Assembly (NCBI GenBank): GCA_963796725.1
Contig: CAWCMT010000001.1
Coordinates: 161,405 to 225,404 of the forward strand
Length of the DNA: 64,000 nt
Reading direction: 5' to 3'
From: an uncultured Actinomycetes bacterium
GTDB lineage: Bacteria; Actinomycetota; UBA4738; HRBIN12
The position numbers and the translations under genes are program-made. Each line of letters starts with the position of its first letter. Position 1 is the first letter of the stretch. Shown piece after piece: positions 1 to 64,000 of this stretch. The notes under the pieces are model-generated. The model was not told the origin of the DNA. It was given only the letters and a program-made list of their open reading frames with translations, and ran no database searches.

Positions 1-2164
1 CGAGCTCGAGGAGGCCCCCGAGGCACGGGTCCTGACCGAGGCCACGGCGATCGGTATCTACGACGACGGCTACGTGGTCGTCTACGAGCGCTCGGTGCCG
101 GTCGCCCGCGTGTGGCACGTGCGGGCGGCGCGCGTCGTTGTCGCGGCCGGCGCGCACGAACGGCCGATCGCGTTCGCCGACGACGACCGCCCTGGTGTGA
201 TGCTCGCCTCGGCGGCCCGCATGTACGTCGACCGGTTCGCCGTCGCGCCCGGGTCGCGCGCGGTCGTGTTCACGACGAATCACACGGGGCACGACGTCGC
301 GCTCGCACTCGACGCGGCCGGACTGGAGATCGCCGCGGTCGTCGACGTGAGCGAAGCCGGCCCCGCCAGCGACCGGACCCGCGAAGCCGGCATCGACGTC
401 CGCAACGGCTGGGCCGTCACGGGCACCGGTGGCGAACCGCGCGTGAGGGAGGTTCACGCGTCGGGGCCCGGAGGTGCCGGCGCGACGTTCGACGCGGACC
501 TGCTGTTGGTCGCCGGCGGCTGGAACCCGGCCGTTCAGCTCTGGCGCGGCATCAACGGTGGGCTTCGCTACGACGACGAACGCGCGTGCTTCCTGCCCGA
601 CGGCACCGGGCCTCGCTGGCTCGACGATCGTCGGCGCCGCCGCGGGCGATGGACTCCCCACCGTCACGCCGTTCTGGTTCACGCCCGCGGAGGACCTGAC
701 CCGACACTTCGTGGACCTGCAACGGGACGCTACCGTCGCCGATGTGCTCGACGCAGTGTCGCGCGACCTCCGGTCCACGGAGCACGTGAAGCGCGCCACG
801 TATATCGGCACCGCGATCGACCAGGGCCGCACGAGCGGCGGTGCTCACGGCGGCCATCGTGAACCAGGCCTGGAGTACCGGCCCGGGCGCGCAGGGACCC
901 ACGAACGCCCGTCCCCCGTACACGCCGGTGCCGTACTCGGTCCTCGCAGGTCGCGACCGTGGTCCCGAGCTCCTCGATCCCGCCCGTCAGACGCCGATCC
1001 ATCCCTGGCACCTCGCACACGGCGCCGTCTTCGAGAACGTCGGGCAGTGGAAGCGTCCGTGGTACTTCCCCACGGCAGACGGCGAGGACCTCCATGCTGC
1101 GGTCGAGCGCGAATGCGTCGCGGTGCGCGAGCGCGTGGGCGTGATGGACGCCTCGACCCTCGGCAAGATCGAACTGGTCGGGTCCGGACGTCGCGAGGTT
1201 CCTCGACCGCCTCTACACGAACCGGATGTCGACCCTGAAGGTGGGCTCGATCCGGTACGGCTTGATGTTGAGCCTCGACGGGATGGTCTTCGACGACGGC
1301 GTGGCGATGCGCCTCGCCGACGACCGCTACCTCATCACGACCACAACCGGAGGAGCCGCCAAGGTGATGGAGCACGCCGAGGAATACCTCCAGACCGAGT
1401 GGCCCGATCTCCGCGTCTACGCCACGAGCGTCACGGAGCAGTGGTCCACGATCGCCGTCAACGGCCCGAGGTCCCGCGACCTCCTGGCGGCGCTCGGCAC
1501 GGACATCGATATCGCCACCGAGGCGTTCCCGTTCATGACGTGGCGTGACGGTGAGGTTGCGGGCATGCCGGCGCGCGTCGCGCGCGTCAGCTTCAGCGGC
1601 GAACTCGCGTACGAGCTCAACGTCGAGGGCCGGCTCGGCCTGACGATGTGGGAGGCGGTGATCGCCGCGGGTGCTCGGCTGGGCATCGCGCCCTACGGGA
1701 CCGAGGCGATGCATCGGCTCCGTGCCCAGAAGGGGTACGTGATCGTTGGCCAAGACACGGACGGGACGGTCACGCCGCACGATCTGGGCATGTCGTGGAT
1801 CGTGAGGAAGGATGGCTCGGACTTCATCGGGCGGCGCTCCTTGCGACGGCCCGACACGCTGCGGCGTGACCGGAAGCAGCTCGTGGGGCTGCGGCCGACG
1901 GATCCAGGGGCGTGGCTCCCTGAGGGCGCACAGCTGGTGGCACCCGAGCACGCACTCGACACCCCGCCGGTCCCCATGCTGGGGTTCGTGACGTCGAGCT
2001 ACCCACGGTACGCGGCGAGCCGGTCGCTCGCTCTCGCGCTGGTCAAGGGAGGGCGCGAGCTGATCGGCTCCCGGCTGGTGGCACCGTGGCCAGGCGGCGC
2101 GATCGAGGCCGAGGTCACGTCGCCCGTCTCCTACGACCCCGAGGGAGAGCGGCGTGACGGCTGA
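1..2164 (+). pseudogene. soxA: Sarcosine oxidase alpha subunit (SoxA), copy 1. The 5' end lies outside the window. The frame is interrupted at least three times (about 630, 850 and 1200).
   Basis: Translations in frames 2->0->1->2 join into a continuous SoxA-like sequence: [19 protein letters not shown]...[19 protein letters not shown], then [51 protein letters not shown], then a C-terminal GcvT-type folate-binding domain (1226..2164). The 3' end overlaps soxG by 11 nt. Confidence 0.8.
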
Positions 2165-2732
2165 CGCGATCCGACGCGACCCGCTCGCCGCACGGCTCGA
2201 GGACCTCGCGCTCGTGGTCGCTCGCACCGGCGGCGCGGTGGGGCTGACGCATGAGCCGTTCCTCACCCAGATCTCGCTGCGACTCGATCCTGCCCTCGCC
2301 GACCGCGCCCCCTATCCCCTACCCCTCACGCCGAACACCGCCTGGGAGGAGGGACCGCGAGCCGCCCTCTGGCTCGGTCCCGACGAGTGGCTCATCCTCG
2401 GTCCGCCGGACGAGGCAGCCCGGATCGCGGCCGAGCTCGATGGAGCGCTCGACGGCCTACACCGGAGCGTGGTGGACCTGAGCTCGAACCGGTCGGCGTT
2501 CGAGCTCACCGGCCCCGGCCGGTTCGAGCTGCTGTCGAAGGGGTGCCCGATCGATCTCCATCCGCTCGCCTGGGCGGCGGGCCGCTGCGCCCAGACGCTG
2601 CTCGCCAAGACCCAGATCGTCCTGCACGAACGGGCCGACAGCACCGGCATCCTGGTGCGCACGTCCTTCTCGACCTACCTGGTGGACTGGCTCCTGGCAG
2701 CTGGGGGCGAGGCCGTCCCAGCCCGGGGATGA
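2154..2732 (+). CDS. soxG: Sarcosine oxidase gamma subunit (SoxG).
   Basis: The 192 aa product has a SoxG-like pattern (LWLGPDEWLILGPPDE...SAFELTGPG...VRTSFSTYLVDWLL) and its start overlaps the soxA stop. Confidence 0.75.
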   Translation: MTADAIRRDPLAARLEDLALVVARTGGAVGLTHEPFLTQISLRLDPALADRAPYPLPLTPNTAWEEGPRAALWLGPDEWLILGPPDEAARIAAELDGALDGLHRSVVDLSSNRSAFELTGPGRFELLSKGCPIDLHPLAWAAGRCAQTLLAKTQIVLHERADSTGILVRTSFSTYLVDWLLAAGGEAVPARG

Positions 2733-2880
2733 AACCGGTATCCGACACGACGAGAGGAACCACGGCCCTCGGGACCTTCGACCCCGGTCGCCGTGGCGCG
2801 GCGCCTCATAGGCTGACTCGCAAGGCCCTGGGCCAGCCTCGTCGATCCGGGGCGCCGGGCCTAGGGAGGAGGATCTCTCG

Positions 2881-3596: not shown

Positions 3597-4813
3597 CTAG
3601 CGATGGGTTCCGGCGCTGGCGGCGTCCGGCACCATACGGTCGTTGCGGAACCTGTCGGGTGCGAACGGCGCGATCAACGGATCAACGCGGCCCGACGCGA
3701 GCAACTCCGCCATCGTCTTGCCGAAGATGGGCGCCCCCTTGAACCCCCAGGTCCCCATGCCGGACATGAGGAAGAAGTTGCCGACCTCGGACTCGCCCAG
3801 CAACGGCGAGGAATCCGGGGTCATGTCGCACAGGCCGGTCCACTGCCGCATCATCCGCGCTTTCGCCATGAACGGCAGGAGCTGGATCGTGCGCTTCGCC
3901 GTCTCCGCCGCGAACTCGAAGGTCGAGCGGGTGGAGTAGGTGTTGTAGGGCAGGGTCTCGCCGCCCACGACCAGTTCGCCACGCGCCGTCTGCTGCGTGT
4001 AGACGTAGAGATCCATCGACGAGACCAGACCCCACAGCACGGGCGTGTACGCCTCGGTGACGAACGCCTGCAGCGCCATCGTCTCGATCGGCAGATGTAC
4101 GCCGGCCATCCGCGCGAGCTCGGACGAGTAGCCGGCCACAGCGCTGACCACGCGGCCCGCCGAGACCTTGCCCCGCGGTGGTCCGCACGCCCGTGCAGAC
4201 GCCGTCGGTCACCTCAACGCCGATCACCTCGACGCCCTCGTGGATGTCCACGCCCCGGCGGTTAGCTGCCGCCGCGTAGCCCCACACCACCGAGTCGTGC
4301 CGCGCGAACGCCCCCGGAGGGTGGTAGGAGGCGCCGATCACGGGAAGCTCGCCTCCCGCCGATAGGTCCACCAGCGGGCAGACCTCCAGCACCTCGTCGG
4401 GGGTGAGGATCTCCGTGTGCACCCCGTACTGCCGCTGGATCAGCAGCGACCTTCTCGCGTTCGACCTGAAGGGTGTCGGTGGAGTGGCACAGATCGAGGT
4501 TGCCCTGGGTGCTGAACAGCACGTTGTAGTCGAGCTCCTGCGAGAGCGTCCGGTACATGTCCAACGACGTTGCGTACAGCGGCACGGTCTCGGTCGTGTT
4601 GTAGGTGGCGCGGACGACCTGCGTGTTGCGCCCGCTGCCCCCGCTGCCCAGGTAGTGACGCTCGAGCACCACGACGTCGCGGATCCCGTGGTACTCGGCG
4701 AGGTGGAACGCCAACGAGAGGCCGTTCACACCCCCGCCCACGATCACCACGTCGTACCGCGGCTTCAGCTGACGACGGCTGAGGTACACGCGGCGACGTA
4801 GCAGCCCGGTCAC
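3597..4813 (-). pseudogene. soxB: Sarcosine oxidase beta subunit (SoxB). It has a GTG start and two 1-nt frame changes (about 4440 and about 4170).
   Basis: The N-terminus carries an FAD-binding motif (YDVVIVGGGVNGLSLAFHLAE). Three frames splice into a typical SoxB sequence (..LQVEREKV / LIQRQYGVHTEILTPDEV...VRTTAG / KVSAGRVVSAVAGYSSELARMAGVHLPIE...). Removing one G from the run GCGGGGCAAGG restores the frame. Confidence 0.8.
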
Positions 4814-5156
4814 GCCAGCAGCTCCGCGCAGTCGACACGGATCCGCTCCTCGACGAACGCACCCAGGCTCGCCGGCACGAGGATCGTGAGACGTCCGGGA
4901 GCCGAGAGGACCTTGGAGCCGATGCGGACGACGTCACCTTGGACGAACCCCTCGCGGGGAGGTCCAGCTCCGAGAGCCGAGCGAACGCCTCGGGAGCGTC
5001 GTCGCCCGTGAGCTCGAACGCGGCCCAGCCGTCCGTCACGTCCTCGATCAGGGCAGCGCCCTCATCCATCCCGACGCCGGCGGGGGTGAGCCCCCCGCCC
5101 CCTATCACCAGCGCCTCGCGCGGGGCGACGCGACACAGCGTGGCGCCCTCCGGCAT
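4810..5156 (-). pseudogene. soxG: SoxG-like gamma subunit, copy 2. It is N-terminally truncated by about 60 aa relative to the copy at 2154..2732 and has one frameshift after ELDLP.
   Basis: MPEGATLCRVAPREALVIGGGG...FELTGDDAPEAFARLSELDLP continues in the +1 frame as EGFVQGDVVRIGSKVLSAPGRLTILVPASLGAFVEERIRVDCAELLA*. The stop forms a GTGA overlap with the soxB start. There is a 66-nt gap to the soxA stop with no in-frame extension. Confidence 0.65.
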
Positions 5157-5222
5157 CGGAAGTCCGTCGAGCGCGGCGGTCGAGGCAGCACGGCGACCAC
5201 GGTGGGGATCACGGTCCGGAGC

Positions 5223-7838
5223 TCAACCACGGAGCCGCTCCCCCGTCGGATCGTAGAAGGGCCTGGGCGCCACGTGGGCATGCGTCCCCTCGTCGCCCGC
5301 GACGTCGAGGGCGGACGGGAAGCCGTCCTCGGAAGCTCGGATCCACCCCAGGCCGATCGGCCGATCCAGCGCGATCGAGCGTTCGGCGGAGGTGATGCGT
5401 CCCACGACCCGACCCCCGACGAGCAGCGGGGTGCCGCGCAGGGCGGCCACGTCGTCGGGTGGGCGCTCGAACTCCAGGCCGACGAGCTTCCGCGTCACGG
5501 GCAGCTCGGCGAGGCGTTCGAGAGCGCGCTTACCGACGAACCACTCCTTGTCCATCGCCACCGCCCAGTCCATGCCGAGCTTCGCCGGCGTGTCGTCGGG
5601 AAGCGTGTCCTGACCCAGATAGACATGACCTCGCTCCAGCCTGAGGAGCTCGAGCGCGTCGAGACCGTGGGGGAGGAGGTCCCACGCCACCCCCTCCCGG
5701 AGGACGGCGGCCCAGAGCTCGGGCCCGCGTGACCGCGGATGGTGCAGCTCGAACGCCAGCTCGCCCACGAAGCCGGTGCGGACGGCGCGACACGGGACGC
5801 CCGCGACCGTGAGGTCGGCGTGGCTCGGGTAGGGCAGCGCGGCAGGGTCGATCGGGTCGTCGGTGAGGCGTTCCAGGAGATCCCGTGCGTGTGGTCCCGC
5901 CACGTTGATCGCTCCCCACTGTGCCGAGCGGTCGAGGACGTGCACGTCCAGGTCCATGCGGTCCGCGAGGTCACGCAGACGTGCGTCGGTTCGCCCCGCA
6001 CCACCCGAGGTGGAGTTCAGATAGAAGGTGCCGTCGCCTATCGCGCAGAGGAGCCCGTCGTCCATCACGTAGCCCGCCTCATCGAGGCTCAGGACGTAGC
6101 GCGTGTCGCCCGCCCCGAGGTCGGCGGTTCGACACGGGAACATCCGGTCGATCAGCGTCGCGGCGTCGGGTCCGGCCACGGTGAACTTCCCGAGCGTGCC
6201 GACGTCCATCACGCTCACGCGCTCGCGCACCGCTCGGTACTCCTCGCGCCAGTCCCCGTACGTGAACGGCCGCCACCAGCCGCCCGAACGGTCCATCCGA
6301 GCGCCGGCGGCGAGGTGCACGTCGTGCAGGGAGGTCCGCTTGAAGTAGAGCTCATGCACGCCGGCGGCGAGTGACTCGAGCGTCACGGGACGCGCCGGCG
6401 GCCGCGAGGTCGTGCGCGGGGCGACCCGCGACGGCGCGTCCGCCGCGAGCGGGGCGAGACCTTCGCCGGCGGCCAGCTTGTCGCGAACGAAGCACGCGAG
6501 CGCCCGACCGCACATCGCGCCCTGGCACGGGCCCATCGTGGTGGTGGTGTAGCGCTTCAGGATCTCGGCGCCCTGGTAGCCCTCATCCCACGCCTGCTCG
6601 AGGTCGTGCAGCGAGACGTCCTCGCAGAGGCACACCGTGCCGTCGCGGCCGTGGGGTGGGGTCGCATCGGCGAGGGCGGCGTCGCCGACCAACTCCACCG
6701 GCTCGCCCGGGAGGGCCATGCGCGCCAGGGTGTCCCGCGGAGCGAGTCCGAGCGATAGCACCAATGTGTCGCACCTGAACGGCTTGACCTGGGTCCCGCG
6801 CCGCAGCACGACGGACTCCAGCGCCTTGCCGCCGCGGGCCTCGTGCAAGGTACCGTCGATCACGATCTCGTCGACGCCGTCGGGAACCTGATCCGCGAGC
6901 GCCTCGGGCACCGCGACCGCCGCGATCCGGACCCCGGCGGCCTGCAGGGTCTCGATGTGATCCAGTCCCTCCCCGATACCGACGACGGCGACGGCCACCT
7001 CACCCGGCCGCACGCCGTGGACGCCCGCCATGCGCGCGGCGCCGCGGCCCAGCCACACGCCGGGCAGGTCGTTGCCCCGGAACACAGGGTGGATCTCGGC
7101 GGCGCCGGTCGCCACGACGACGCGTTCGGGGTGCACACGCACCAGCTCCCCGTCGGCCACGAGCGGAACCTCGAGGCCCTCGTAGATCCCCAGCGCGGTG
7201 TGCCCATCGAGCACCGTGACGGCCGGCGACGAGCGGACCTCGGCTTCGAGCGTACGAACGCGCTCGAGGAGGGCGCCGGGCGCGATCGCGTCCCCGATCG
7301 GCGACTCGTCGCACACGGTCACGCGCTCGCCCCGCGCGCCGGCCGCGCGGGCGGCCTCGAGCCCGGCCGCTCCCGCCCCGACGACGAGCACGTCGGTCCG
7401 TAGGAACCGCACGACGCTGCGCTCGGCGACCGTCGTGGACGGGAGCGACCCCAGGCCCGTCGCCCGGCGGATGACCTTCTCGGCCGTCGACCATGCGAAC
7501 CGTGGCGTGATGAACGTCTTGTAGTAGAAGCCCACCGGCATCAGGCGGTGGAGCGAGTCCGTCACGTGGAGCAGGTCGCGCTCGGTCGAGGGCCAGCCGT
7601 GCGGACGCCGGACCTCCATACCGCTCGCGCACGGTGCCTGGCACGCGTGCACTCCCGGTCTGCCGTCGACGGTGACCAGGCAGTTGGGACAATCACCGGT
7701 TCCGCAGTAGAGGCCGCGGCGGCGGTGGTACTTCAGCGAGCGCGAGAAGGTGCGGACGCCGTCGCGGAAGAGCGCGGATGCCACGGTGTCGCGCTCGACG
7801 AACGGGACATCCCGCCCCTCGAAGCGGATCGCCCCCAT
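5223..7838 (-). CDS. soxA: Sarcosine oxidase alpha subunit (SoxA), copy 2. It appears intact, starting at the internal ATG (MGAIRFEGRDVPF...).
   Basis: It has an N-terminal 2Fe-2S motif (GLYCGTGDCPNCLVTVDG), an FAD/NAD domain (VLVVGAGAAGLEAA) and a C-terminal GcvT domain. The ATG lies 1 nt after the soxD stop. Confidence 0.85.
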   Translation of the reverse strand: MGAIRFEGRDVPFVERDTVASALFRDGVRTFSRSLKYHRRRGLYCGTGDCPNCLVTVDGRPGVHACQAPCASGMEVRRPHGWPSTERDLLHVTDSLHRLMPVGFYYKTFITPRFAWSTAEKVIRRATGLGSLPSTTVAERSVVRFLRTDVLVVGAGAAGLEAARAAGARGERVTVCDESPIGDAIAPGALLERVRTLEAEVRSSPAVTVLDGHTALGIYEGLEVPLVADGELVRVHPERVVVATGAAEIHPVFRGNDLPGVWLGRGAARMAGVHGVRPGEVAVAVVGIGEGLDHIETLQAAGVRIAAVAVPEALADQVPDGVDEIVIDGTLHEARGGKALESVVLRRGTQVKPFRCDTLVLSLGLAPRDTLARMALPGEPVELVGDAALADATPPHGRDGTVCLCEDVSLHDLEQAWDEGYQGAEILKRYTTTTMGPCQGAMCGRALACFVRDKLAAGEGLAPLAADAPSRVAPRTTSRPPARPVTLESLAAGVHELYFKRTSLHDVHLAAGARMDRSGGWWRPFTYGDWREEYRAVRERVSVMDVGTLGKFTVAGPDAATLIDRMFPCRTADLGAGDTRYVLSLDEAGYVMDDGLLCAIGDGTFYLNSTSGGAGRTDARLRDLADRMDLDVHVLDRSAQWGAINVAGPHARDLLERLTDDPIDPAALPYPSHADLTVAGVPCRAVRTGFVGELAFELHHPRSRGPELWAAVLREGVAWDLLPHGLDALELLRLERGHVYLGQDTLPDDTPAKLGMDWAVAMDKEWFVGKRALERLAELPVTRKLVGLEFERPPDDVAALRGTPLLVGGRVVGRITSAERSIALDRPIGLGWIRASEDGFPSALDVAGDEGTHAHVAPRPFYDPTGERLRG

Positions 7839-7839
7839 C

Positions 7840-8067
7840 TCAGTGGACCTCGTTCGTGCGCGTGTCGCGGGTGAGCGTCGTCCACGTGCGACAGCCAAGG
7901 GCGTGGAACCACCGCTCCTCTTGCGGGCCGGCGAGGTTCTCGGGATGGAAGACGCGCGCGAAGTCGGACTCGGGGTCGGTCGCATCGATCGGACGGACCT
8001 CGCCACCGAAGCTGAACTCGGTGGTGGGACGCGGGCCACAGAACCCGCAGGGGATCTTCAGCGTCAT
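7840..8067 (-). CDS. soxD: Sarcosine oxidase delta subunit (SoxD).
   Basis: The 75 aa product MTLKIPCGFCGPRPTTEFSFGGEV has the SoxD zinc-ribbon-like N-terminus. Confidence 0.8.
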   Translation of the reverse strand: MTLKIPCGFCGPRPTTEFSFGGEVRPIDATDPESDFARVFHPENLAGPQEERWFHALGCRTWTTLTRDTRTNEVH

Positions 8068-8205
8068 GTCGCACCACCCCCCGGATCCAGCCGTTCCACC
8101 ACGTGACCCCCGTTCAGGCTCGCGAGAGCGGAGTCTGCCACGACCTGCGGCATCGTGGCATGAGTAGGACGTGACCCGCGGTTCCCCGAGAGAGGGACGT
8201 CGCCG

Positions 8206-9087: not shown

Positions 9088-10632
9088 CTAGACGTTCGAG
9101 TCGGGGAAGGAGGCCTTCTGCCGCTCGATCCACTCCTGAAGTTCCTGATCCACCGCGTCCTCGATCGGCGGCGGCTCGTACTCGGCGAGCATCTTCTTCC
9201 ATATCGGGTTCGCCCGGTTAGTCGTTTCCAGTGCCCCTTCGAGCTCCCATTGCTCGAAGCTGTTGTTGTCCGCGACCGAGGACCGGTAGAACGCGGTCTC
9301 GAAGTTCGCCAGGGTGTGGGCCGTTCCGAGGAAGTGCTGGCCGGGACCGTTCTCGATGATCGCATCGATCGCCTGGCCGTTCGGAGAGAGGTCCACGCCC
9401 TTCGCGAGTTCGTGCATCATCCCGCACTGGTCGAGGTCCATCACGAACTTCTCATATCCCATGGTCAGCCCGCCCTCGAGCCAGCCCGCCGCGTGGAGCA
9501 CGAAGTTCACCCCTCCCAGGACGGTTGGCTGCAGGGTGTTGGCGGATTCGTAGGCGGCCTGCGCATCGGGGGTCTTGGCGGCCGTCAGCGAGCCACCGCT
9601 TCGGAAGGGGACGCGCAGCCGACGCGCACACGCCGCCAGGGTGTAGAGCACGAGCGCCGGCTCGGGCGTACCGAAGGTGGGTGCACCCGACTGCATCGAC
9701 ATCGACGATGCGAACGAACCGAAGACCACGGGCGCACCGGGGCGCACGAGCTGCACGTAGGCCATGCCCGCCAGCGACTCGGCGAGCGTCTGCGCCGCCG
9801 CCCCCGCCACGGTGGCAGGGCTCATGGCGCCCGCCAGGATGAACGGCGTCATGATCACGGCCTGGTTCGCCTCGGCGTAGGCTTTCGCGGCGCCGAGCAT
9901 CGACGAATCCCACACCAGCGGGGAGTTCGCGTTGATGAGGCTCAGGATGTACGTCCCCGACTCCAGCGCATCGACCCCGAACAGGATCCGAGCCATCTCC
10001 ACCGTGTCCTGGGCGCGCTGCGGATGCGTCACCGAACCCATGAACGGCTTGTCCGAGTAACGCATGTGCGCGTACACCATGTCGTAGTGCCGCTTGTTGA
10101 CGGGCAGATCCACCGGCTCGCAGACCGTGCCGCCCGAGTGGTGGAGGTAGGGCGCCGCGTACGCGAGCTTCACGAAATTGCGGAAGTCCTCGATGGTGCC
10201 GTAGCGTCGACCGCCGTCCAGGTCCCGGACGAACGGGGAGCCGTAGGCAGGCGCCAACACGGTGGCGTTCCCGCCGATCTGGACGTCGTTGGCGGGGTTC
10301 CGCGCGTGTTGCGTGAACACCTCAGGCGCGGTGGCCTGGACGAGCTGGCGGCACATCCCGCGGGGGAACCTCACCCGCTCTCCGGCGACGTCGGCGCCGG
10401 CATCTTTCCAGAGCTGCAGCGCGTCGGGCGCGCCCTTGAAGTCGATCCCCACCTCCTCCAGGATCCGGTCGGCGTTCTCCTCGATCAGGCTCAGCCCCTC
10501 CTCCGACAGAACCTCGAACGGCGTCAGGGTGCGGGTGATGAAGGGGACCCTCTCGGCAGCGCTCGCGAGACGGGCGGCGGCGCGGCCGGCGCGGCCTCCG
10601 GTCCGGCGTCCGCGCGGGGCGGTGTCGCTCAT
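9088..10632 (-). CDS. MttB-superfamily methyltransferase without pyrrolysine. I predict it is a glycine betaine (quaternary amine):corrinoid methyltransferase, MtgB-like.
   Basis: The 514 aa product shows trimethylamine methyltransferase family signatures (RTLTPFEVLSEEGLSLIEENADRILEEVGIDF ... MGSVTHPQRAQDTVEMARILFG ... HAAGWLEGGLTMGYEKFVMDLDQCGMM) and has no in-frame amber codon. Its start overlaps the ramA stop. Confidence 0.8.
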   Translation of the reverse strand: MSDTAPRGRRTGGRAGRAAARLASAAERVPFITRTLTPFEVLSEEGLSLIEENADRILEEVGIDFKGAPDALQLWKDAGADVAGERVRFPRGMCRQLVQATAPEVFTQHARNPANDVQIGGNATVLAPAYGSPFVRDLDGGRRYGTIEDFRNFVKLAYAAPYLHHSGGTVCEPVDLPVNKRHYDMVYAHMRYSDKPFMGSVTHPQRAQDTVEMARILFGVDALESGTYILSLINANSPLVWDSSMLGAAKAYAEANQAVIMTPFILAGAMSPATVAGAAAQTLAESLAGMAYVQLVRPGAPVVFGSFASSMSMQSGAPTFGTPEPALVLYTLAACARRLRVPFRSGGSLTAAKTPDAQAAYESANTLQPTVLGGVNFVLHAAGWLEGGLTMGYEKFVMDLDQCGMMHELAKGVDLSPNGQAIDAIIENGPGQHFLGTAHTLANFETAFYRSSVADNNSFEQWELEGALETTNRANPIWKKMLAEYEPPPIEDAVDQELQEWIERQKASFPDSNV

Positions 10633-20548: not shown

Positions 20549-20557
20549 GGCATCGAC

Positions 20558-20596: not shown

Positions 20597-20613
20597 GCGT
20601 CTACCTCGAACCC

Positions 20614-24852: not shown

Positions 24853-26544
<1,692 letters not shown>

Positions 26545-26548
<4 letters not shown>

Positions 26549-53323: not shown

Positions 53324-53328
53324 CGAGC

Positions 53329-54547
53329 TACTTCCGGCGCTTGGGCTTGCTCAAGCCCGCTGCGGCGCCCGCGCGCGCTGCCGCTGAAGACGGTCCGCGG
53401 CGGCGCCACCTTCATGCCCTCCAGCTCGAACTCCTCATGCAGGTCGAGGCGTGCCGCCATGCGGCTCACGTCGCCCAGCCTGGTCCGGCGTCACGAACGT
53501 GATGCTGGTGCCCGCTGCGGCCCGCGCGCGCGGTGCGGCCGACGCGGTGCACGTAGCCCTTGTCGTCCTGGGGGGGTCGTAGTTCACGACGAGCGTGATG
53601 TCGTCGAGGTCGAGACCGCGGGCCGCGACGTCGGTGGCGATCAGCACGCCCACGTGCTTGTCCTCGAACCGCTGCAGTGCCTTCTCGCGCGCCTGCTGGG
53701 TCATGTCGCCGTGCATCGTCACCGTGGGCACACCCTCGTTCGCGCAGTTGGCGGCCAAGCGTATCCACATGGCGCTTCGTGTTCACGAACACCAGCGTGA
53801 GGCCCGTCTCATCCTCGGCACGGGCCAACTCGATCAGCTTCTCCAGCTTCCCGTGCGACTCCACGGGGATGAACTGTGATCGGCCTCATCCACGGTCTGC
53901 GAGTCCGACTCGATCTCGTGACGGACCGGGTTCCGCGTATAGACCTCGGCGATCCGTCCGACCGCGCCGTCGAGCGTGGCCGAGAAGAACATCGTCTGGC
54001 GGTCCTTCGGCAGGTGGCGAACGATCCGATCGACCTGAGGCTGGAACCCCATATCGAGCATCCGGTCTGCCTCATCCAGGACGAAGATCCGCACGGCATC
54101 GAGACGCACGAGCCTGCGCTCCACCAGGTCGTCGAGGCGCCCCGGCGTGGCGACAGGATGTGGGCGCGGTCGACGCCCTTAGCCTGCTCCTTGACGTTCG
54201 TGCCGCCATACACCGCCTTCACCTTCAGGTCCTTCGCCTTCGCGATGTCTATGAAGTCGTCCTTGACCTGCGTGCAGAGCTCCCGGGTGGGCACGAGGAC
54301 GAGCGCCTCGGGCCGCTTCGTCGGACGCGGGATCGAGCTGCTCCACGATCGGGATCGCGAAACCCAGCGTCTTGCCGGAGCCGGTCTTGGACTTGGCGAG
54401 CGTGTCGCGACCTGCGGTGGCATCCACGATGACCATCGCTTGGATCGGGAACGGCTCGTCGATCCCCCGAGCCGCGAGTGCGTCGATGACGGCGTCGGAG
54501 ACGCCGAGGTCATGGAAGGAAGGGATTACAGGGGCCATATCGGGCAT
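53329..54547 (-). pseudogene. DEAD-box ATP-dependent RNA helicase, with at least 5 frameshifts.
   Basis: Pieces in several frames carry the Q-motif/Walker A (..PFPIQAM...AKSKTGSGKTLGFAIP), VLDEADRMLDMGF, SAT and a C-terminal helicase domain ([13 protein letters not shown]...[10 protein letters not shown]). Confidence 0.7.
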
Positions 54548-54727
54548 ATCAGCGTACCCGGTTCTCTACAGCTCGAACGCGCCATCGAGCGCTCCGACGA
54601 GATGCGACAACGATCAGGAGCTGGGCGAGGGCGAGCGCCTCGGAGCGACGCTCACCATGTTCGGGGTGGCGGACGATCCCGATCCGCTCCCAGTGCAGCC
54701 GATCGTCCGGGCGGAGGTAGGACCAGA

Positions 54728-55551
54728 TCATGTCCTCGATCTCCTCACCCAGGCGGGCGGGCAGTTGCCGTCGATGTCGAGCACACTCAGCGGACCGCGG
54801 GCGTCGGTCCGGGTCGACCAACGGATGGGCTCCTCGCGACGGCGCCGCTTGAGCGAGCCGACCAGCTCGCGTAGCCCCGGGAACGGAAGCGTCGGCCGCA
54901 CGATAAGACGTGCGGACAGGGGCTCGTCGGCGTCCGCGCGGGGCCGGCGATGGAACATCACGATGATGTCGGCGAACATCCGCTGCGGGCGCACATACTC
55001 GGCGACATCTGGCTCGCGACGTTCGAGCTGGTCCACCACCTCCTGCGGGGAGTAGCCGCGATCGAATACGTCTCGCTCGAGCTTCCAGCGTCGGCGAAGG
55101 ATCTCCTCCGGCTCGAGGAAGACGGCCACGTCGATCGCGTCGCGGGTGGAGCGCTCGGCGAGCGGCAGGAGCCCTTCCACGATCAGGAACTCCCCCGGCT
55201 GCGATGGTCTCATCCTCGCCGAACGTCCCGGTCCGGTGTTCGTAGGTCGGCTTCGTCACCGCAGCGCCGGCGGCAAGCAGCCGGAGATGCTCCGCCAGCA
55301 GGTCGAGCCGGTTGGCCTCGGGTGCCAGCGGCGTGACGCCCCGCTCGCGCGCGCGCGGCACGGATCCAGCGGTGGTAGTCGTCCGTGCACACACGCGCAC
55401 ACGTTCCACCCCGAGGATGTACTCGATCCCGCGGCGAGAGCGTGCTCTTGCCCGAGGCGCTGTCCCCGGCCAAGCCCAGGAACACCGGACGCTGGCCCAC
55501 GGGCCCGGTGACCCGCAGATCGATCGTCGCCGGGGTCGTCATGTCCACCAT
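54728..55551 (-). pseudogene. Phosphoribulokinase/uridine kinase-family P-loop kinase, frameshifted.
   Basis: The N-terminus carries GLAGDSASGKST. Later pieces in other frames include ..FLIVEGLLPL... Confidence 0.5.
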
Positions 55552-55665
55552 CGTGGGGCAAGAGGGTAGCCGAGACGGTCCGCGGAGCGGTAGGAGCCGG
55601 GCACAGATACATCGCACCGGCGCTCGCCGGTAGGCTGACGAACTCTGACCGAGCACGGGGGAACG

Positions 55666-56530
55666 ATGGACGACGCATCCAGCTCTGGAACGAATTCGCC
55701 GCGCAGATCGCGGTGGACAGCATCCGCGCGCACCACGGCCGCCGGGTCGGGGCATCCCACGTCGTCGATGTCGTGCGCCCATCTGCTTCGCGTGCTGTAC
55801 GCGAGTCACCTGCGGACCGACGTCGCGGTACCCACGGTACCCGTCGGGAACGATCGGTTCATGATGTCGAAGGGGCATGCGGCCCCGGCGCTGTACGCCG
55901 TCCTGAAGGGCGATCGGCGCGATCCGACGAAGAACTGTCTGTCCCTGCGCCGGATGGGCTCGCCGATCCAGGGCCATCCGCGCCCGTTGCCCGAGCTGCC
56001 CTGGATCGACGTGGCGAGCGGCTCGCTCGGCCAGGGGCTGGCCGTCGGCCTCGGGATGGCGATGGCGATGACGCATGGACGGGAACCCCGGGACGCACGT
56101 GGGTCCTGATGGGGGACTCGGAGGTCGCCGAGGGCTCCGTGTGGGAAGCCATGGAGGCGGCGGCCTTCCACGCGGTCGACAACCTCACGGCCATCCTGGA
56201 CCTGAACCGTCTCGGCCAGCGCGGTCCCACGATGCACGAGTGGCGCGCCGATACTGTTCGCGCAACGTGCCCAGGCGTACGGCTGGCACTCGATCGAGAT
56301 CGACGGACACGACGTCGCCTCGATCGACCGTGCCTACACGGAGGCAGCGGCCGACGACAGGCCCACGCTGATCGTGGCGCGTACCGAGAAGGGCCACGGG
56401 GTCTCGTTCCTGGCCAACCAGGAGGGATGGCACGGCAAGGCGGTTCCGGCCGACCGCGAGGCCGAGGCCATCGAGGAGCTCGGGGGCGATCCGATCGCTC
56501 ACGTCACGCCGCTCCTCGACCGGAGCCCTA
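55666..56530 (+). pseudogene. Transketolase N-terminal section (split-type transketolase subunit A), with multiple frameshifts.
   Basis: AAGSGHPTSSMSCAHLL..., DRFMMSKGHAAPALYA and WVLMGDSEVAEGSVWEAMEAAAFH appear across different frames. Confidence 0.55.
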
Positions 56531-56539
56531 CCACGAGAT

Positions 56540-57526
56540 CGTGCTCGGCGAGCCCGACCCGAGCCCGCGCCCGCCTACGACGAGGCGGTCGCCACGCGCA
56601 AGGCGTTCGGCGAGACCCTCGCGTGGCTCGCCGGCCATCGTCCCGACCTCGTCGTCCTCGACGGCGAGGTCGGCAACTCCACGTACACCGAGGACTTCCA
56701 GGCGGTGGCCCCCGAGCGGTTCGTGGAGATGTACATCGCCGAGCAGTGCATGGTGGGGGTGCAGACGGGCCTGCAGGCGATCGGGAAGACGGCGTTCGCC
56801 GCGACCTTCGGCGCGTTCCTCTCGCGGGCTGCCGACTTCGTGCGCATGGGCGCGATCAGCCGCGCGAACCTGCGGATCTGCGGGTCTCACGCCGGCGTCT
56901 CGATCGGCGAGGACGGGCCGTCGCAGATGGCGGTGGAGGATCTCTCCATGTTCCGCACGCTGCACGGATCCACGGTGCTGTATCCGGCCGACGGCAACGC
57001 CACCGTGCAAGCTGGTGAGCGCCGATGTGCGACCTGCCGGGCATCTCCTACATCCGGACCACGCGCGAGGCGACGCCGCCCCTGTACGACGGCGACGAGG
57101 CGTTCCCCATCGGCGGGTCGAAGACCCTGCGGCTGGAGCGAGCACGACGTCGCCACGCTGGTGGGCGCCGGCGTCACGCTGTCACGAGTGCCTGGCGGCC
57201 GCGGACCGGCTGGCCGGCGAGGGATCGCCGTCCGGGTGATCGACGCCTACTCGGTGAAGCCGATCGACGCCGAGCGCCCTGCGCGATGCGTTCGACGAGA
57301 CCGGCCTGCTGGTCGTGGTCGAGGACCACCGGATCGAGGGGGGCATCGGCGACGCCGTCCTCGATGCGCTCGCGGCGACGGGGGCGATGCAGCGGCACGC
57401 GTCGATGAAGCTCGCGGTGACGGAGATGCCGGGATCGGGCACGGCGCGAGCGAGCTGCGGGCGTGGGCCGGGATCGACGCCGATTCGATCGCGGCTCAGG
57501 TCAGGGCTGCCCGCGCGTCGGACTGA
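56540..57526 (+). pseudogene. Transketolase C-terminal section (split-type subunit B), with multiple frameshifts.
   Basis: ...ICGSHAGVSIGEDGPSQMAVEDLSMFR, YIRTTREATPPLY and VKPIDAE...VEDHRIEGGIG appear across different frames. Confidence 0.55.
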
Positions 57527-57541: not shown

Positions 57542-59816
57542 TCACACCTTCGATCCGATGGCGCCGGGAACCGGAACGCCGCCGAACGCGTAGGCGATGA
57601 TCTCCTCGGGCGGCACCGGCTTGGCGAAGAGGAACCCCTGCCCCAGCTCACATCCGCGATCGCGGAGGAAGTTCAGCTCGCTCTCGGTCTCGATCCCCTC
57701 CGCCAAGGTCGTGATGCCGAGTCCCCTCGAAAGGTCGAGGAAGGCACCGACGATGCTGGCCGACTGAGGATCGGCCTCCACCCCGCTGACGAAGGACCGG
57801 TCGATCTTGAGGACGTGAACCGGCATCTCCCGCAGGCGGGAGAGGGACGAATACCCGGTGCCGAAGTCGTCGATCGCGATCCTCAGCCCGGCGTCGTTCA
57901 GCTCCCACAGGATCTCCTGTGCGCGGTCGGGGTCCACCATGGCCGAGCTCTCCGTGATCTCGACGAGGATGGTGGAGGGATCGATCCCCCCAGAGCGGAT
58001 CTGGCGGACGATGCGCTGCGCCAGGTCCGGCTGCCAGAACTGCCGCGGCGACAGGTTGAAGCCGATCTCCAGATCCAGGTCCAGCTCCCGCCAGGCGTTC
58101 GCCTGGTAGACCAGCTCCCGCACCACCCAATCCCCGATCACCTCGATCAGGCCGAGCTCCTCGCTCAACGGGATGAAATCGTTCGGCGGCACCATCGTGC
58201 CGTCGGGCTCGATCCAGCGGATCAGGGCCTCGACGCCCCGCATCCGACCCGAGGCCAACTCGACCACCGGCTGGTAGTGGAGGGTCCAGCGCTGGGCATC
58301 CACGGCCTTGCGCAGCCGCGTCACGAACTGCAGCTTGGCGCCGGAATCGAACGCTCCGCGCGAGGAGACCACGTACCCGCCGGGCCCCGCCTTCTTGGAC
58401 TCGTACATCGCGGCCTCCGCGTTGTGCTGCAGGACGCCACCGTCCGGCGCATCCTGGGGGAACAGGCTGAGACCGAGGCTGACCGACACGTATAGCTCGG
58501 TCGTATCCACCATGAACGGCGCCGCCATCGCGTCGTGGACGCGTTGTGCCGTGGCCTCGGCACGCACCACGGCGGTATCCATGTCGCCAGGATCGCGCTC
58601 GAGGTCCGACAGCAGCATCAGGAATTGATCCCCGCCGCGGCGCGCCACCAGGTCGGTCTCACGGGATGCCTCACGCAGACGCGCGGCCACCATCCGCAGC
58701 AACTCGTCACCGTTGCGATGGCCGAGCGAATCGTTGGCGAGTCGGAAGTCATCGATGTCGACACAGATCACCACCACCGACCGATCCCGACGTTCGGCGC
58801 GAGCGATCGAGAGCTCCAGGAGCTCCTCGAACATCGAGCGGCTCGGCAACCCCGTGAGTTCGTCGTGATAGGTGTTGAACGCCATGTCGACCTCGTCGCG
58901 CTTGCGCTCCGAGACATCCATCAACACCCCGTGTGAGAAGCCCGTTCCCCCCGGTTCGTCTCGGACCATGACGGCCTCGTCATGGATCCAGACCAGGCTG
59001 CCGTCCCGGTGGAACATCCGGTACTCCATGCGGAAGGGCTCTCCCGTCTCGTTGTGCCGTCGGTTCTCGCCGAGAGCGTGGTCCCGGTCTTCCGGGTGCA
59101 GCACTTTCGACCAGAGCTCGGGGTCGGCGAGCCATTCCTGCGGTGTGTAGCCGAGCATCGTCTCCACCTGTGGGCTGATGTAGATGGTCGACGCAGATCC
59201 GTCGGCAGCATCGATGTAGCTCACGGCCGGACCGTGACTCGACCATGGACCGGTAGCCGTCGTCGCTCAGCCGTTTCGTGTCTTCTTCCCGCACCCGCGT
59301 GAGGGCTCCACCTAGGGTCGTCGCGATGGTACGGAGCGCGTCCACCTCGACATCCGACCACACCCGCTCGTGACGGTGATCCTCCAACCCGACGTGACCC
59401 CACCACTCCGTACCGCAGAACACGGGAACCGCGACGACGGCGCGGACGTGTCGTGAGCCGAACAGCTCGCGTTCCGCATCCGGAAGATCGCTCAGCCTAG
59501 CCCGCACGACGTCCCCACCGCCGAGGATCTCGATCCACCGAGCCAGGTCGGGGGCGTAGGGACGCGCGCGGTCGGACGGGTCCTCGGGGGAGGGTGTCGT
59601 GGCCGGTGAGGACCACTCCGCCGCCAGATCCATCCACAGCCTGCCGTTGTCGTCCCTGCAGTTGCGGAAGGCGAACGCCCGGTCCGCGGACGCGGCTGCG
59701 CCAAGGTGCGCAAGCACCTCCTCGAGACGCTCGACCCAGTCCCCGCCTTCGAACAGACGACCCGAGGCGGAGGCTGCGGCCTCCAGCATCGTATCGCCAG
59801 CCGCGGGGCCACTCAC
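57542..59816 (-). pseudogene. GAF-PAS-GGDEF-EAL signalling protein, paralogous to 51103..53323 and carrying one frameshift near 59225.
   Basis: GGDEF (RRGGDQFLMLL) and EAL (EALIRW, KIDRSF, EGIETESE) domains, with an N-terminal GAF-like part in the adjacent frame. Confidence 0.7.
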
Positions 59817-60360: not shown

Positions 60361-61798
60361 ATGAGCATCGACATCCACCCGAAGCCGTCCAACCTACGCC
60401 CGGGCCACCGTGAGTCGCACGCCCACGTGGCCGAGGATCAGCCGTTCCACTACCCGCTCCGCCGCGCCTACGTAGAGCCTGACTGGACGCGCCTCCCCGG
60501 CTATCGAGACGTGACGAAGGAGCAGTGGGAGTCCGCGCAGTGGCAGCGGGCGCACTCGGTGAAGAACCTCAAGGAGTTCAAGGATGCTCTCGGCGCTCAC
60601 CTCACCGACGAACTCCTCGAGGACATCCGACTCGATCAGGCAGAGCGCGCCACGATGTCGATGCTGATCCCGCCCCAGATGATCAACACGATGGACGAGA
60701 CCGACCTGCGGGGAGATCGCGTACGTCGGTACATGGCCCCGGCCTTCAGCGAACGAGACTCGGAGTGGGCGAGCCATCCGATGGCCTCCCGTGACTCCCT
60801 CCACGAGGCCGACATGTGGGCGGTCGAGGGTCTGACCCATCGCTACCCCACGAAGGTGCTGGCCGAACTGATCCCCACGTGCCCCCAGTACTGCGGCCAC
60901 TGCACCCGCATGGACCTCGTGGGCAACGACACCCTTCAGATCTTGAAGTACAAGTTCGAGACCAAGCAGAACGAGCGATGGGACCTGATGCTGGACTACC
61001 TGCGGTCGCACACCGCAGGTTCGCGACGTCGTGGTGTCGGGGGGCGACATGGCGAACGTGCCAGTGAAACGGCTCGAAGGCTTCGTGATGTCGCTGTTGG
61101 ATATCGAGAACATCCGCGACATCCGGATCGCCACCAAAGGTCTCATGGGGATCCCGCAGCATTTCCTCCAGGACGACGTCAAGGCGGCGTTCGGACGCAT
61201 GGGCGCGCGGGCGGCGGATCGGGGCGTTGACCTCGCGGTGCACACCCACGTGAACTGCGCACAGCAGGTCACACCGCTGGTCGGCCGGGCGGCGCGCATG
61301 GTGCTGGACGCGGGTTTCCGCGACGTGCGCAACCAGGGTGTGCTACTTCGCGGCGTGAACACCGCCCCCAACGACCTCCTGGAGCTCTGCTTCACCCTCC
61401 TGGATCACGCGAAGATCATGCCCTACTACTTCTACATGTGCGACATGATCCCCAACGCCGAGCATTGGCGGACCTCCGTGAAGGAGGCGCAGGACCTGCA
61501 GTACCAGCTCCTCGGGTACCTGCCGGGGTTCGCGACCCCGCGGGTGATCTGCGACGTGCCCTTCGTTGGCAAGCGCTGGGTCCACATGCTGAAGTCCTAC
61601 GATCAGACGCGAGGGGTCTCGTACTGGACGAAGAACTACCGGACGGGGATCGAGGCCGAGGACCCCGAGGCCCTCACGCGCGAGTACGTGTACTTCGACC
61701 CGATCTACACGCTGCCCGAGGAGGGGCAGCGGTGGTGGCGGGAGCAGGTCGCGAACGGCCTCCCGGAGGCTCGGTGGGTCGAGCCCACACATGCCTGA
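60361..61798 (+). pseudogene. KamA-family radical SAM aminomutase (lysine 2,3-aminomutase-like), with one frameshift near 61015.
   Basis: CPQYCGHCTRM radical-SAM cluster motif. The C-terminal half (61031..61798) continues a KamA-type protein. Confidence 0.65.
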
Positions 61799-61809: not shown

Positions 61810-63360
61810 CTACCCTCCGGCGTTGCCGCTGAGATCGCCGACGTTGGTGCCATAGGGACAGTCCTGACGGATCGGCAGCACGAGCTTCTGGGTGTCCGGC
61901 GGCGCGGAGAAATCGAAGGCGCCCGCCAGGGGCGGAGGCCTGCGCATCACGCTGCGTGAGCGACTTCAACCCGTGCAGGTCCTCGATGAACTTGAGCACG
62001 CTGGAGAACTCGTAGGGCGTGTGGTCCACGTACCCGCCGTCCGGGTTGTTCCCCGCTGCGCGTGTACGGGCTGATGATCAGGGCGGGTGTCCGGGGGCCC
62101 AGACCCATGATGTCGAAGTGTGGGGGCTTGACGGGATCGTAGAAGCCGCCGAAGTCATCCCACACCACGACGATCGCCGTGGACCGCCAATAGCGACTCT
62201 GCATGACCGTGTTGATCTGATTCACGGTCCAGTTCTCGCCCGCGCAGACGGAGATCGGAGAGTAACTCGAACTGTTGGGGTCGGAGTCTCCGGGATGCTC
62301 GTTGTAGGGCTCGGGCGGGATCAGCCAGGACACCGCAGGGAGGTGCCCCGACCTTCACGTCGTCGATGAAGTTGGAGGGATCCTGCACCTTGGACCAGAT
62401 GGCCGGGGTGAACCGATCGTGCCTGATCGCCTGGAGCCCGTTCATCCAGTGATCCTTCAGGGCGTAGTACTTCCAGTAGACGCCCGCCGCCTGCAGCTCG
62501 TCCGGTAGCGACTTGATCGGCACGCAGGTCCGCGCTTGCACCCAGTACTGGGAGATCTTGTACAGCTGGTCCGGGATCTTCTGGGTGATGTGGTTCTCGA
62601 GCTTCGGTGATCTTGGCCAGGTCGGCTCGCTCAGCTTCTCGAGCGGGAAGCGCGGGGCGTACTCGGTGGGATCGTCGCAGTAGCTCCCGGGGTGGTCGAC
62701 CGTGCTCTTGTTGTCGACGATGCCGTAGCTCTGTGCGGCCACCGTGTAGAGGTGCTCTGGGAACGTCGGACCGTACATCGATGTGAAGAAGTGGTCGGCT
62801 AGGACGAATCGGTCGGCGTACTTCCAGTAGTTCGGGATCCCGGACCGGTCGAAGTACGCGTAGCCCGACTTGTCCTGGCCCGAGCCGATGATGTTGTACC
62901 CGTCCATCCGTCCGCCGTCGATCGCGTACAGACCCGAGGAGAACCCGTGCGTGATGTCGTGCGGCTGCACGTCCTCGGCCTTCGTGAGCTGGTAGTCAGG
63001 GCCCGGGGCTGCACCCATCGCCGGTGCAATCCAGCGTCTTTCCGGTCGTGGTTCCCACGGCGCCGTGCCCGTAGGTGGCGAAGTAGTTGTTGAAGGTGCG
63101 GTTCTCCTTGACGATGAAGATCACGTGCTTGATCGGATTGCGCCCTGGCGCGATCTGATCGGGCGAGGGCGCGCCGCTCCCCTTGCCTCCGTGCTTCTTC
63201 ACGTTCGCCCGCTCAGCACCTCCGGACGGCCAGATGAGCCAGGCAAGCACCACGAGCCCGACGACGACGATCGCGACGAAGGCACGCCGCCGCACCACCT
63301 GCTTGTGCGTGGGCCCGCGGTGCGACGCAGGGCGGATGATGGGACCGGGGCGCTGTTGCA
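61810..63360 (-). pseudogene. Phosphoesterase-family protein (phospholipase C / acid phosphatase AcpA family), with multiple frameshifts.
   Basis: Pieces include ...HVIFIVKENRTFNNYF..., ...WDDFGGFYD... and a C-terminal ...[20 protein letters not shown]. The stop is recovered in the +1 frame. Confidence 0.55.
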
Positions 63361-63417
63361 CGATCCAGCAGTCTACCGCCCGCTTTCGGGGCGAGGGTCC
63401 ATGACGGTCGAGCGTGG

Positions 63418-64000
63418 TCGCCAGCCTTTCGCGGACGGCTGCGTACCTCGGTTCACGCGCCACGTTGCGGAGCTCGCCCGGGTCCGAACGGCCGATGGCG
63501 CCGGTGAGATCGTAGAGTTCCACGGTCCCGTCACGGCTCTCGACATAGGCGTAGTTGCGCGTCCTCACGCCCCGCCACGGCGGCACCTCGAGGTCGCCGT
63601 TCCACTCGATCAGCTGCGGACGGTTCGGGCCGGGGGTGGGCGCATGGCTCCCGATCGTCGAGGGCTCGTTGAGGAGGCCCGCGAAGCTCCTGCCGTCCGG
63701 CGGGACGCCTGGCACGACGCCCGCCAGATCGGCGATCGTCGGGGCCAGGTCGACGTTGGAGACGAGCGTGGGGATCCTGCCGGCGCTGAGCCACGGCGCG
63801 TAGACCGCCAGCGGGGTCCGGATGCACGGGTCGTACGCACATCGCTTCCCCTCCCATCGGTGTTGACCGAACGCGTAGCCGTTGTCCGTCAGGAAGATGA
63901 AGACGGTTCGGTCCAGCTCGCCGCGGGCGGCGACCTCCTGGTAGAGGCGCCGGACCGCATCGTCGACCGAGCGCAGGGTCTCGCGCTCCTTCCGCCGATC
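63418..64000 (-). CDS. Sulfatase (arylsulfatase family) C-terminal part. The 5' end lies outside the window and the 3' end is uncertain: the reading frame runs on into the phosphoesterase N-terminus with no stop.
   Basis: Sulfatase C-terminal pattern ...NGYAFGQHRWEGKRCAY...VELYDLTGAIGRSDPGELRNVA... Confidence 0.4.

Follow-up and report, generated by a model that had tools for sequence, protein, structure and literature searches.

The subject of this paper is a 64,000-nucleotide stretch of contig CAWCMT010000001.1 from an uncultured Actinomycetes bacterium (the window in what follows, whose coordinates are used throughout), in which many genes can be read as continuous proteins only after one or more changes of reading frame. 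In 22 of its genes we find about 74 frame-disrupting indels, with insertions strongly outnumbering deletions (59 vs 15, or 3.9:1). It is very probable that these frameshifts are consensus errors in the assembled sequence and not mutations in the organism. All 22 affected genes, including those for the catabolism of glycine betaine, dimethylglycine and sarcosine, should be treated as intact. An earlier reading made from the letters alone (the sequence-only reading) had favoured assembly error over pseudogenisation, and this preference is now supported by near-identical contigs that lack the indels, by the insertion spectrum and by signs of purifying selection.

Frame breaks in the record and their absence from related contigs

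The frame breaks themselves are confirmed as present in the sequence record. We followed the coding frame through this DNA, which has a G+C content of 69%, with a Viterbi path over the periodicity of G+C at third codon positions (GC3). The path repeatedly switches frame within what are expected to be single genes, and when translations are joined along it, full-length Pfam domains run continuously over the junctions. These include DAO (1-353 of 353) in soxB, Raco_middle in the corrinoid activase, GMC_oxred_N and GMC_oxred_C in betA, GGDEF, EAL, DEAD, Helicase_C, the three transketolase domains and Phosphoesterase (1-356 of 356). Frameshift-aware protein-to-DNA alignment against orthologues from up to nine related assemblies places the events within a few bases of each other whichever orthologue serves as the query. 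The same alignment finds zero events in intact-looking genes, among them soxA2 and those for MTHFR, MttB, the pterin-binding protein, the corrinoid protein and ADH. Calls confined to N-terminal stop-to-stop extensions of the orthologue open reading frames (ORFs), for example at 2859, 17159, 30740/30768, 38621 and 48360, were dropped as alignment artefacts.

The pervasive breakage described by the sequence-only reading is therefore borne out by the Viterbi path, the continuous Pfam domains and the orthologue alignments, but its figure of at least 35 frameshifts in about 20 genes was an undercount. Every gene that it named, from soxA copy 1 through the phosphoesterase, is affected, and four more are hit, namely an opu permease (23595), a solute-binding protein (32253), an MFS transporter (36570) and a sulfatase (63403). 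The four junctions that it had reconstructed were right to within about 10 nt (4174, 4959, 11783 and 14712). It had described these changes as single-nucleotide, which is true of most events, but a few are of 2 nt and there is a single insertion of 4 nt at 4442-4445. It had also seen the density climb towards the 51-64 kb end. This part of the window is indeed enriched, but the enrichment is actually a sharp hot-spot: the events number 0.53 per kb at 1-17 kb, 0.47 at 17-34 kb, 0.11 at 34-52 kb, 8.0 at 52.0-57.5 kb and 1.2 at 57.5-64 kb.

Contigs nearly identical to the window were located through exact-match look-ups of neighbouring intact window proteins. Contig L081 from Logan (run ERR11571143) matches window positions 19753-22112 at 99.4% identity. 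JGI metagenome 3300082225 provides contig Ga0673044_0001023, which we handle as L134 (1-13589, 98.3%) and L133 (3538-21526, 98.9%), contig Ga0673044_0016328 (L136; 47117-55886, 95.4%) and contig Ga0673044_0001435 (L135; 56694-64000, 97.0%). The contigs of this metagenome cover 37.6 kb of the window at 95-99% identity. In L081, L133/L134, L135 and L136 each affected gene that is covered forms one full-length ORF, and at the coding frameshifts that they overlap each base gain or loss is seen solely in the window. The shared coding sequence of 36 kb contains 63 indel differences, of which 58 are of 1 nt, three of 2 nt, one of 4 nt and one a multiple of three. Thus 62 of the 63 are not multiples of 3 nt, and each frame disruption falls in the window copy. 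Comparison with closely related genomes was the check that the sequence-only reading had proposed, and the near-identical contigs are free of every coding frameshift that they overlap.

Contigs of 79-87% identity (L083, L084 and L132) are likewise without the window's indels. Still more distant relatives, from at least ten separate assemblies including short-read-style k141 and NODE contigs, have single ORFs and call for the same corrections. As the indels are missing from near-identical and distant contigs alike, parsimony makes them specific to this record. The events at 21.5-47.1 kb and 55.9-56.7 kb were judged against relatives of 60-86% identity. A scan of metagenome contigs with the amine oxidase gave relatives at most 63% identical for that gene, and two of them, L085 and L086, had enough synteny for a check of 21-40 kb. 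Two large searches at the protein level, with the corrected transketolase and with the first GGDEF-EAL protein, returned nothing above 88% identity and did not surface the near-identical JGI contigs. Searches of a plasmid collection gave only short matches of 70-80% identity and no close relative.

Selection, indel spectrum and the hot-spot

The corrected genes still show purifying selection. Substitutions against the near-identical contigs fall mainly at codon position 3 (460 of 639, 72%), while the 47 precisely mapped +1 insertions are spread 16/14/17 over the codon phases (chi-square p = 0.86). The substitutions are rich in third positions and the indels are blind to phase, and therefore selection has filtered the substitutions and never acted on the indels. 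Past the first frameshift, synonymous and nonsynonymous differences stand at 63:34, and in intact genes and the parts upstream at 117:69 (Fisher p = 0.80). The DEAD-box helicase, despite its eight frameshifts, differs from its counterpart in L136 by 77 synonymous and 20 nonsynonymous changes, with no stops and 95% amino-acid identity. No in-frame stops were found in the corrected frames, either in the 4,409 codons of frameshifted genes at 46-64 kb or in the genes compared with the JGI contigs, and the only stops in the first 21 kb lie in spurious or extended ORFs of the orthologues and not in real genes. A random substitution in the hot-spot genes would make a stop in 2.6% of cases. At 5-10 substitutions per indel, an assumption taken from the mutation-accumulation literature, the 44 indels of the hot-spot predict 6-11 stops, and the probability of seeing none is 3e-3 to 1e-5. 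Branch lengths from three taxa (the window, L084 and L001) give a window/L084 ratio of 0.97-1.13 for the four hot-spot genes and of 1.14-1.61 for the neighbouring genes, which carry zero, one or six frameshifts.

The spectrum of the indels is unlike that of real pseudogenes. The insertion excess among the first 71 events (56:15) departs from an even ratio (binomial p = 1e-6) and from the 300:396 of curated pseudogenes (p = 8e-10). This reference set comprises 151 curated bacterial pseudogenes with 300 insertions and 396 deletions (0.76:1), and a mean deletion of about 19 nt (PMC6054270). Enrichment at homopolymers is absent, as the longest run within 6 nt averages 2.75 at the events and 2.66 at random positions (p = 0.23). 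The inserted base matches neither neighbour in 38 of the 47 mapped +1 insertions, and about 9 of the 47 extend a run. The run-associated exceptions are found at 4174, 4959, 47721 and in an intergenic G-run at 20586-20590. These observations speak against the sequence-only reading on one point, since it had placed the indels often in a G/C run. Taken together, the spectrum, phase-blindness, constraint, stop and branch results rule out pseudogenes of long standing. If the indels were real mutations, about 74 extremely recent, insertion-biased and frame-blind events would have to have occurred in a single strain.

The hot-spot at 52000-57500 contains 44 frame-disrupting events in 5.5 kb, where 2.5 would be expected from the remainder of the window (Poisson 2e-38). 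A strain-divergent block at about 50-58 kb encloses it. There the mismatches against L136 and L135 rise to 37-82 per kb, from 6-23 per kb in most other bins, the contigs of JGI 3300082225 being otherwise 97-99% identical. The mismatches of the block are synonymous for the most part (65:32 in the first GGDEF-EAL gene, 77:20 in the helicase, 34:21 in the PRK kinase gene and 49:25 in the C-terminal part of the transketolase gene) and therefore represent real divergence, not substitution error. This synonymous excess, as in the helicase, also led us to reject a view of the hot-spot as raw-read-like sequence with many substitution errors besides the indels. Both JGI contigs stop within the transketolase gene, L136 at 55886 and L135 at 56694, a break of the kind that strain bubbles cause in assemblies. 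The window holds a different haplotype of the 50-58 kb block than the JGI population, or a recombination tract, and the block looks real as a strain-variable or recombined segment of the soil actinomycete population. We also considered a mixed-strain consensus that keeps both alleles of single-nucleotide polymorphisms. This predicts insertions beside codon position 3, which the 16/14/17 split does not support.

The source of the errors would be a metagenome assembly of long reads from an uncultured soil actinomycete. The intact window proteins are all found, in the public protein collection, on one contig of 1,026,978 nt (NCBI, ENA). The closest genomes are soil metagenome-assembled genomes (MAGs) labelled Actinomycetes or Actinomycetota, the top one being MFD02242.bin.2.262, whose KamA protein is 88% identical, and they are Nanopore-only Flye+Medaka MAGs (PMC12313526). 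A long-read origin is suggested because the source contig measures 1.03 Mb and the closest relatives are Nanopore-only MAGs. During assembly and polishing, stray single bases were very probably inserted and less often lost. The background of such errors is about 0.1-0.5 per kb, and one stretch of 5.5 kb reaches about 8 per kb. The hot-spot might then be a strain-variant path with few supporting reads, which the polisher could not clean. It is documented that gene calls become frameshifted through long-read consensus indels, and that short-read polishing is necessary for bins with less than about 40-fold coverage (PMC9262707).

Several points weigh against consensus error as the explanation. 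The errors are deduced from sequence comparison and were not observed in reads, and for the events at 21.5-47.1 kb and 55.9-56.7 kb the comparison was with relatives of 60-86% identity. The classical Nanopore R9, 454 or Ion Torrent signature is tied to homopolymers and these events are not. Their insertion bias resembles more that of PacBio continuous long reads. Outside the hot-spot, indel differences from the near-identical contigs are about 11 times denser in intergenic than in coding sequence (7.0 vs 0.64 per kb). Some of the indel differences are thus probably true polymorphisms between strains, and this could also hold for a rare one in coding sequence. Pure error would be expected to give equal densities in coding and intergenic sequence, and we regard this contrast as non-discriminating.

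The main rival is genuine pseudogenisation, in which the locus, or at least the block at 52-57.5 kb, is decaying in the lineage. This would fit the many genes that are hit, some of them repeatedly, and the position of the hot-spot in a block that is 4-8% divergent from the closest contigs. We consider it very unlikely, given the complete lack of in-frame stops, the third-position share of the substitutions and a synonymous to nonsynonymous ratio that is unchanged past the frameshifts. The hot-spot genes show no excess of amino-acid change on the window branch, the 3.9:1 insertion bias and the 1-nt sizes contradict the deletional and size-variable spectrum of real pseudogenes (PMC6054270), and the indels are missing from contigs of 95-99% identity. 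A mixture is also conceivable, in which nearly all events are errors and one or a few isolated frameshifts are real inactivations, with tetR, kamA, the opu permease and one betA event as candidates. Bacterial genomes usually hold a few real pseudogenes, the events at 21.5-47.1 kb were compared only with relatives of 60-86% identity, and some intergenic indels resemble genuine polymorphism. Such a mixture is nevertheless unlikely, as the isolated events at 11783, 14712, 19786, 47721, 59235, 61008 and 63403 are all missing from the overlapping near-identical contigs. The isolated events are, moreover, +1 and non-homopolymer like those of the hot-spot, and no individual gene shows relaxed constraint. 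We see a small chance that two things are real, with a few isolated frameshifts, especially at 21.5-47.1 kb, being genuine inactivations and the 50-58 kb block being strain-variable or recombined.

It could also be asked whether the frames are restored by programmed ribosomal frameshifting, transcriptional slippage or other recoding. The only point in its favour is that frameshifts occur in genes that are otherwise well conserved. All relatives have uninterrupted orthologues at these places, so that there is no conserved frameshift site, and the events are blind to codon phase, lie mostly outside runs and number up to 19 in one gene, which makes recoding extremely improbable. That the window is correct and its relatives carry the errors is the least credible reading of all. 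Some relatives, the MFD MAGs, are themselves Nanopore-only. Yet more than ten independent assemblies from different samples, including short-read-style contigs, agree with each other and encode full-length, Pfam-complete proteins, and the window alone needs the frame changes. Consensus error in the record remains the reading that we adopt in describing the individual genes.

Affected genes and gene content

The genes of the hot-spot and its surroundings carry most of the events. The PAS-GGDEF-EAL protein 1 gene (51103-53323, + strand) has 11 frameshifts, with +1 changes at 52034, 52414, 52531, 52569, 52608, 52959, 52980, 53120 and 53284 and -1 changes at 53179 and 53244. They were reproduced with nine orthologues and confirmed base by base against L136, where the gene is intact (737 aa), and the best database homologues are all intact at about 740 aa. 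Eight frameshifts affect the DEAD-box helicase gene (53328-54538, - strand; +1 at 54321, 53742, about 53510, about 53475 and 53356, -1 at 54154, 53873 and 53573), which L136 encodes as an intact protein of 402 aa. The gene for a kinase of the PRK/uridine-kinase family (54566-55551, - strand) has six, with +1 at 55431, 55347, 55201 and 54607 and -1 at 55395 and 54752, and is intact in L136 (326 aa). The transketolase gene (55666-57523, + strand) is the most heavily affected, with 17-19 frameshifts from 55673 to 57451. Its N-terminal 72 codons were confirmed against L136 and its C-terminal 273 codons against L135. The sequence-only reading had taken it for two transketolase halves, but it is one gene of 614 aa, and the best 120 homologues are single proteins of 609-621 aa. 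This short single-chain form of about 614 aa, with Transketolase_N, Transket_pyr and Transketolase_C domains, is widespread in soil Actinomycetota MAGs at 75-88% identity.

The GAF-PAS-GGDEF-EAL protein 2 gene (57542-59789, - strand) has a single +1 at 59235 and is intact in L135 (748 aa). The two PAS-GGDEF-EAL genes (51103-53323, + strand, and 57542-59789, - strand) are inverted paralogues whose GGDEF-EAL parts are about 66-68% identical in nucleotides. They flank the helicase, PRK kinase and transketolase genes, and this layout is conserved in all syntenic relatives.

Further towards the 3' end, the gene for a kamA-like lysine 2,3-aminomutase (60361-61798, + strand) has one +1 at 61008, an event reproduced with nine orthologues. 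It is intact in L135 (478 aa), with 99.2% amino-acid identity. The gene for a phosphoesterase family protein (61810-63298, - strand) has six frameshifts, with +1 at 61934, 62056, 62352, 62606 and about 63000 and -1 at 62626, and L135 again has it intact (494 aa). The sulfatase gene (63373-64000, - strand) runs off the window end and has a +1 at 63403, about 10 codons before its stop, whereas the L135 gene is intact (471 aa). The extra base removes the sulfatase stop, so that the sulfatase frame is fused with the phosphoesterase N-terminus in a stop-free frame at 62996-64000 (- strand). A gene caller would yield a chimeric sulfatase-phosphoesterase fusion there.

The gene content was read from Pfam and from gene calls on related contigs. 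A glycine betaine/dimethylglycine/sarcosine catabolic island spans 1-26548. It comprises two sox clusters (soxA1-soxG at 1-2732 and soxB-soxG'-soxA2-soxD at 3597-8080), two paralogues of dimethylglycine dehydrogenase (DMGDH), a non-Pyl methyltransferase of the MttB family, a corrinoid protein and a RACo activase. The island also includes a pterin-binding methyltransferase, MTHFR, an opu-type ABC transporter, betA and a 'Virulence_fact' protein of 117 aa, and its gene order is kept in the JGI contigs L083 and L133/L134. Beyond the island there follow an acyl-CoA synthetase, a pot-like ABC system, assorted oxidoreductases, an MMPL exporter, tetR and kbl. Towards the 3' end come the block from the first GGDEF-EAL gene through the helicase, PRK kinase and transketolase genes to the second GGDEF-EAL gene, and then kamA, the phosphoesterase and the sulfatase.

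In the island, the gene for copy 1 of the soxA-like sarcosine oxidase alpha subunit (1-2164, + strand) runs off the window start and has +1 changes at 626, 839 and 1182. The SO_alpha_A3 and GCV_T domains cross these junctions, the protein-to-DNA alignment concurs, and L134, at 98.3% identity, has an intact gene of 899 aa without the three extra bases. Downstream of it, the spacer between soxG and the DUF998 gene (2732-2881) contains five small indels (2759, 2819, 2832, 2845 and 2858). Either real variation or a further patch of low quality may underlie them. At 87 mismatches per kb against L134, the 2-3 kb bin has the highest value outside the hot-spot, and part of this peak is contributed by the fast-evolving soxG (26 nonsynonymous and 16 synonymous differences). 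The soxB gene for the sarcosine oxidase beta subunit of the DAO family (3597-4813, - strand) has a +1 at 4174 and the +4 at 4442-4445. It is intact (403 aa) in L133/L134 (98-99% identical) and in L083 (87% identical). The soxG' gene (4810-5231, - strand), with -1 changes at 4959 and 5187, has an intact 140-aa orthologue in L083 and L133/L134. Its position between soxA2 and soxB is conserved in these contigs, and it has no Pfam match in the window copy or in the relatives.

The gene for the RACo/RamA-type corrinoid activase (10629-12618, - strand) has one base extra at 11783, where Raco_middle crosses the junction, and is intact in L083 and L133/L134 (662 aa). The first DMGDH paralogue (14647-17131, - strand) has a +1 at 14712, 21 codons before the true stop, and is intact in L133 (827 aa). 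An exact look-up of the 839-aa DMGDH ORF, whose C-terminus is itself frameshifted, found no match. In the second paralogue (18124-20548, + strand) the Pfam domains are continuous after joining over the +1 at 19786, and the extra base is missing from L081 (99.4%) and from L133 (98.9%, intact at 807 aa). The intergenic G/C run at 20586-20590 separates the convergent DMGDH2 and opuAC genes, where a terminator is likely, and this homopolymer varies in length, with 7 nt in the window, 6 nt in L081 and 4 nt in L133.

The glycine-betaine-type ABC permease gene of the opu system (21630-23700, - strand), with two fused BPD_transp_1 domains, has a +1 at about 23595, near the N-terminus. This site lies beyond the near-identical contigs and rests on three orthologues (L085, L086 and L103), all of which need the identical frameshift. 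The betA gene for a choline dehydrogenase of the GMC type (24880-26548, + strand) has +1 changes at about 25072, 25151, 25614-25620 and 26284. GMC_oxred_N and GMC_oxred_C cross the junctions, the same three orthologue sources concur on the four events, and the DNA of L132 confirms 25620 and 26284.

Outside the island, the gene for an ADP-forming acyl-CoA synthetase (27806-29909, - strand; CoA_binding_2, Succ_CoA_lig and ATP-grasp_5 domains) has one extra base at 28686 and is intact in L132 (700 aa). Two probable events are found within the first 10 codons of their genes and chiefly move the apparent start. One is a +1 at 32253, about 10 codons into the gene for the solute-binding protein of the pot-like ABC system (32224-33474, + strand), where L085 and L132, the latter with a gene of 416 aa, both show one extra base in the window. 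The other is a +1 at 36570, about 6 codons into the MFS transporter gene (36550-37787, + strand), judged against L085, L086 and the 411-aa gene of L132. The potB-like ABC permease gene (33481-34444, + strand) has a +1 at 33892 on which L085, L086, L102 and L103 concur, and is intact in L132 (320 aa). The gene for the TetR-family regulator (46507-47173, + strand) has a +1 at 46684, between TetR_N and TetR_C, and is intact in L084 (221 aa). The gene for the kbl-type aminotransferase (47175-48363, - strand) has a +1 at 47721, where the Aminotran_1_2 domain crosses the junction. It is intact in L136 (395 aa), and the corrected protein has 99.0% amino-acid identity.

Consequences and comparison with known systems

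The question raised by this record is a matter of annotation, not of biology. An automated pipeline would call about 22 of the roughly 55 window genes fragmented or pseudogenes, including most of the catabolic island and the transketolase. Left uncorrected, the record would have the pathway wrongly scored as broken and the coding density deflated, and truncated or chimeric fragments would be seeded into protein databases. The exact correction sites are now given, functional inference should use the frame-corrected genes, and the record itself needs polishing. Since these errors favour insertions and do not depend on homopolymers, most of them would escape polishing or filters that are homopolymer-aware. 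A sharp error hot-spot within a strain-divergent block is a warning sign for long-read metagenome assemblies.

Among the closest known parallels are the interrupted ORFs of long-read (Nanopore or PacBio) assemblies, as revealed by the IDEEL test (Sereika et al. 2022, PMC9262707; Kastor, PMC12007338), in which 1-base consensus indels likewise break up genes that relatives have intact. Metagenome bins of low coverage suffer most from this, and here too the source contig is of megabase size and the closest relatives are Nanopore-only. There are two differences. The classical errors are tied to homopolymers, whereas 38 of the 47 mapped insertions in the window are not and insertions are in excess by about 4:1. 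The window also has a sharply bounded patch of 5.5 kb in which the error is roughly 20-fold higher. The homopolymer errors of 454, Ion Torrent and Nanopore R9 are similar in that they shift the frame by one nucleotide in either direction, but the window differs from them in having no homopolymer enrichment.

Genomes rich in pseudogenes under reductive evolution invite a different comparison, and Mycobacterium leprae is a further such genome beside the leaf-nodule symbionts Candidatus Burkholderia. The latter resemble the window in having many genes with more than one frame-disrupting indel each (Danneels et al. 2018, PMC6054270). In real pseudogenes, deletions outnumber insertions (396 vs 300), the mean deletion is about 19 nt, nonsense mutations occur and constraint is relaxed, and in each of these respects the window is the opposite.

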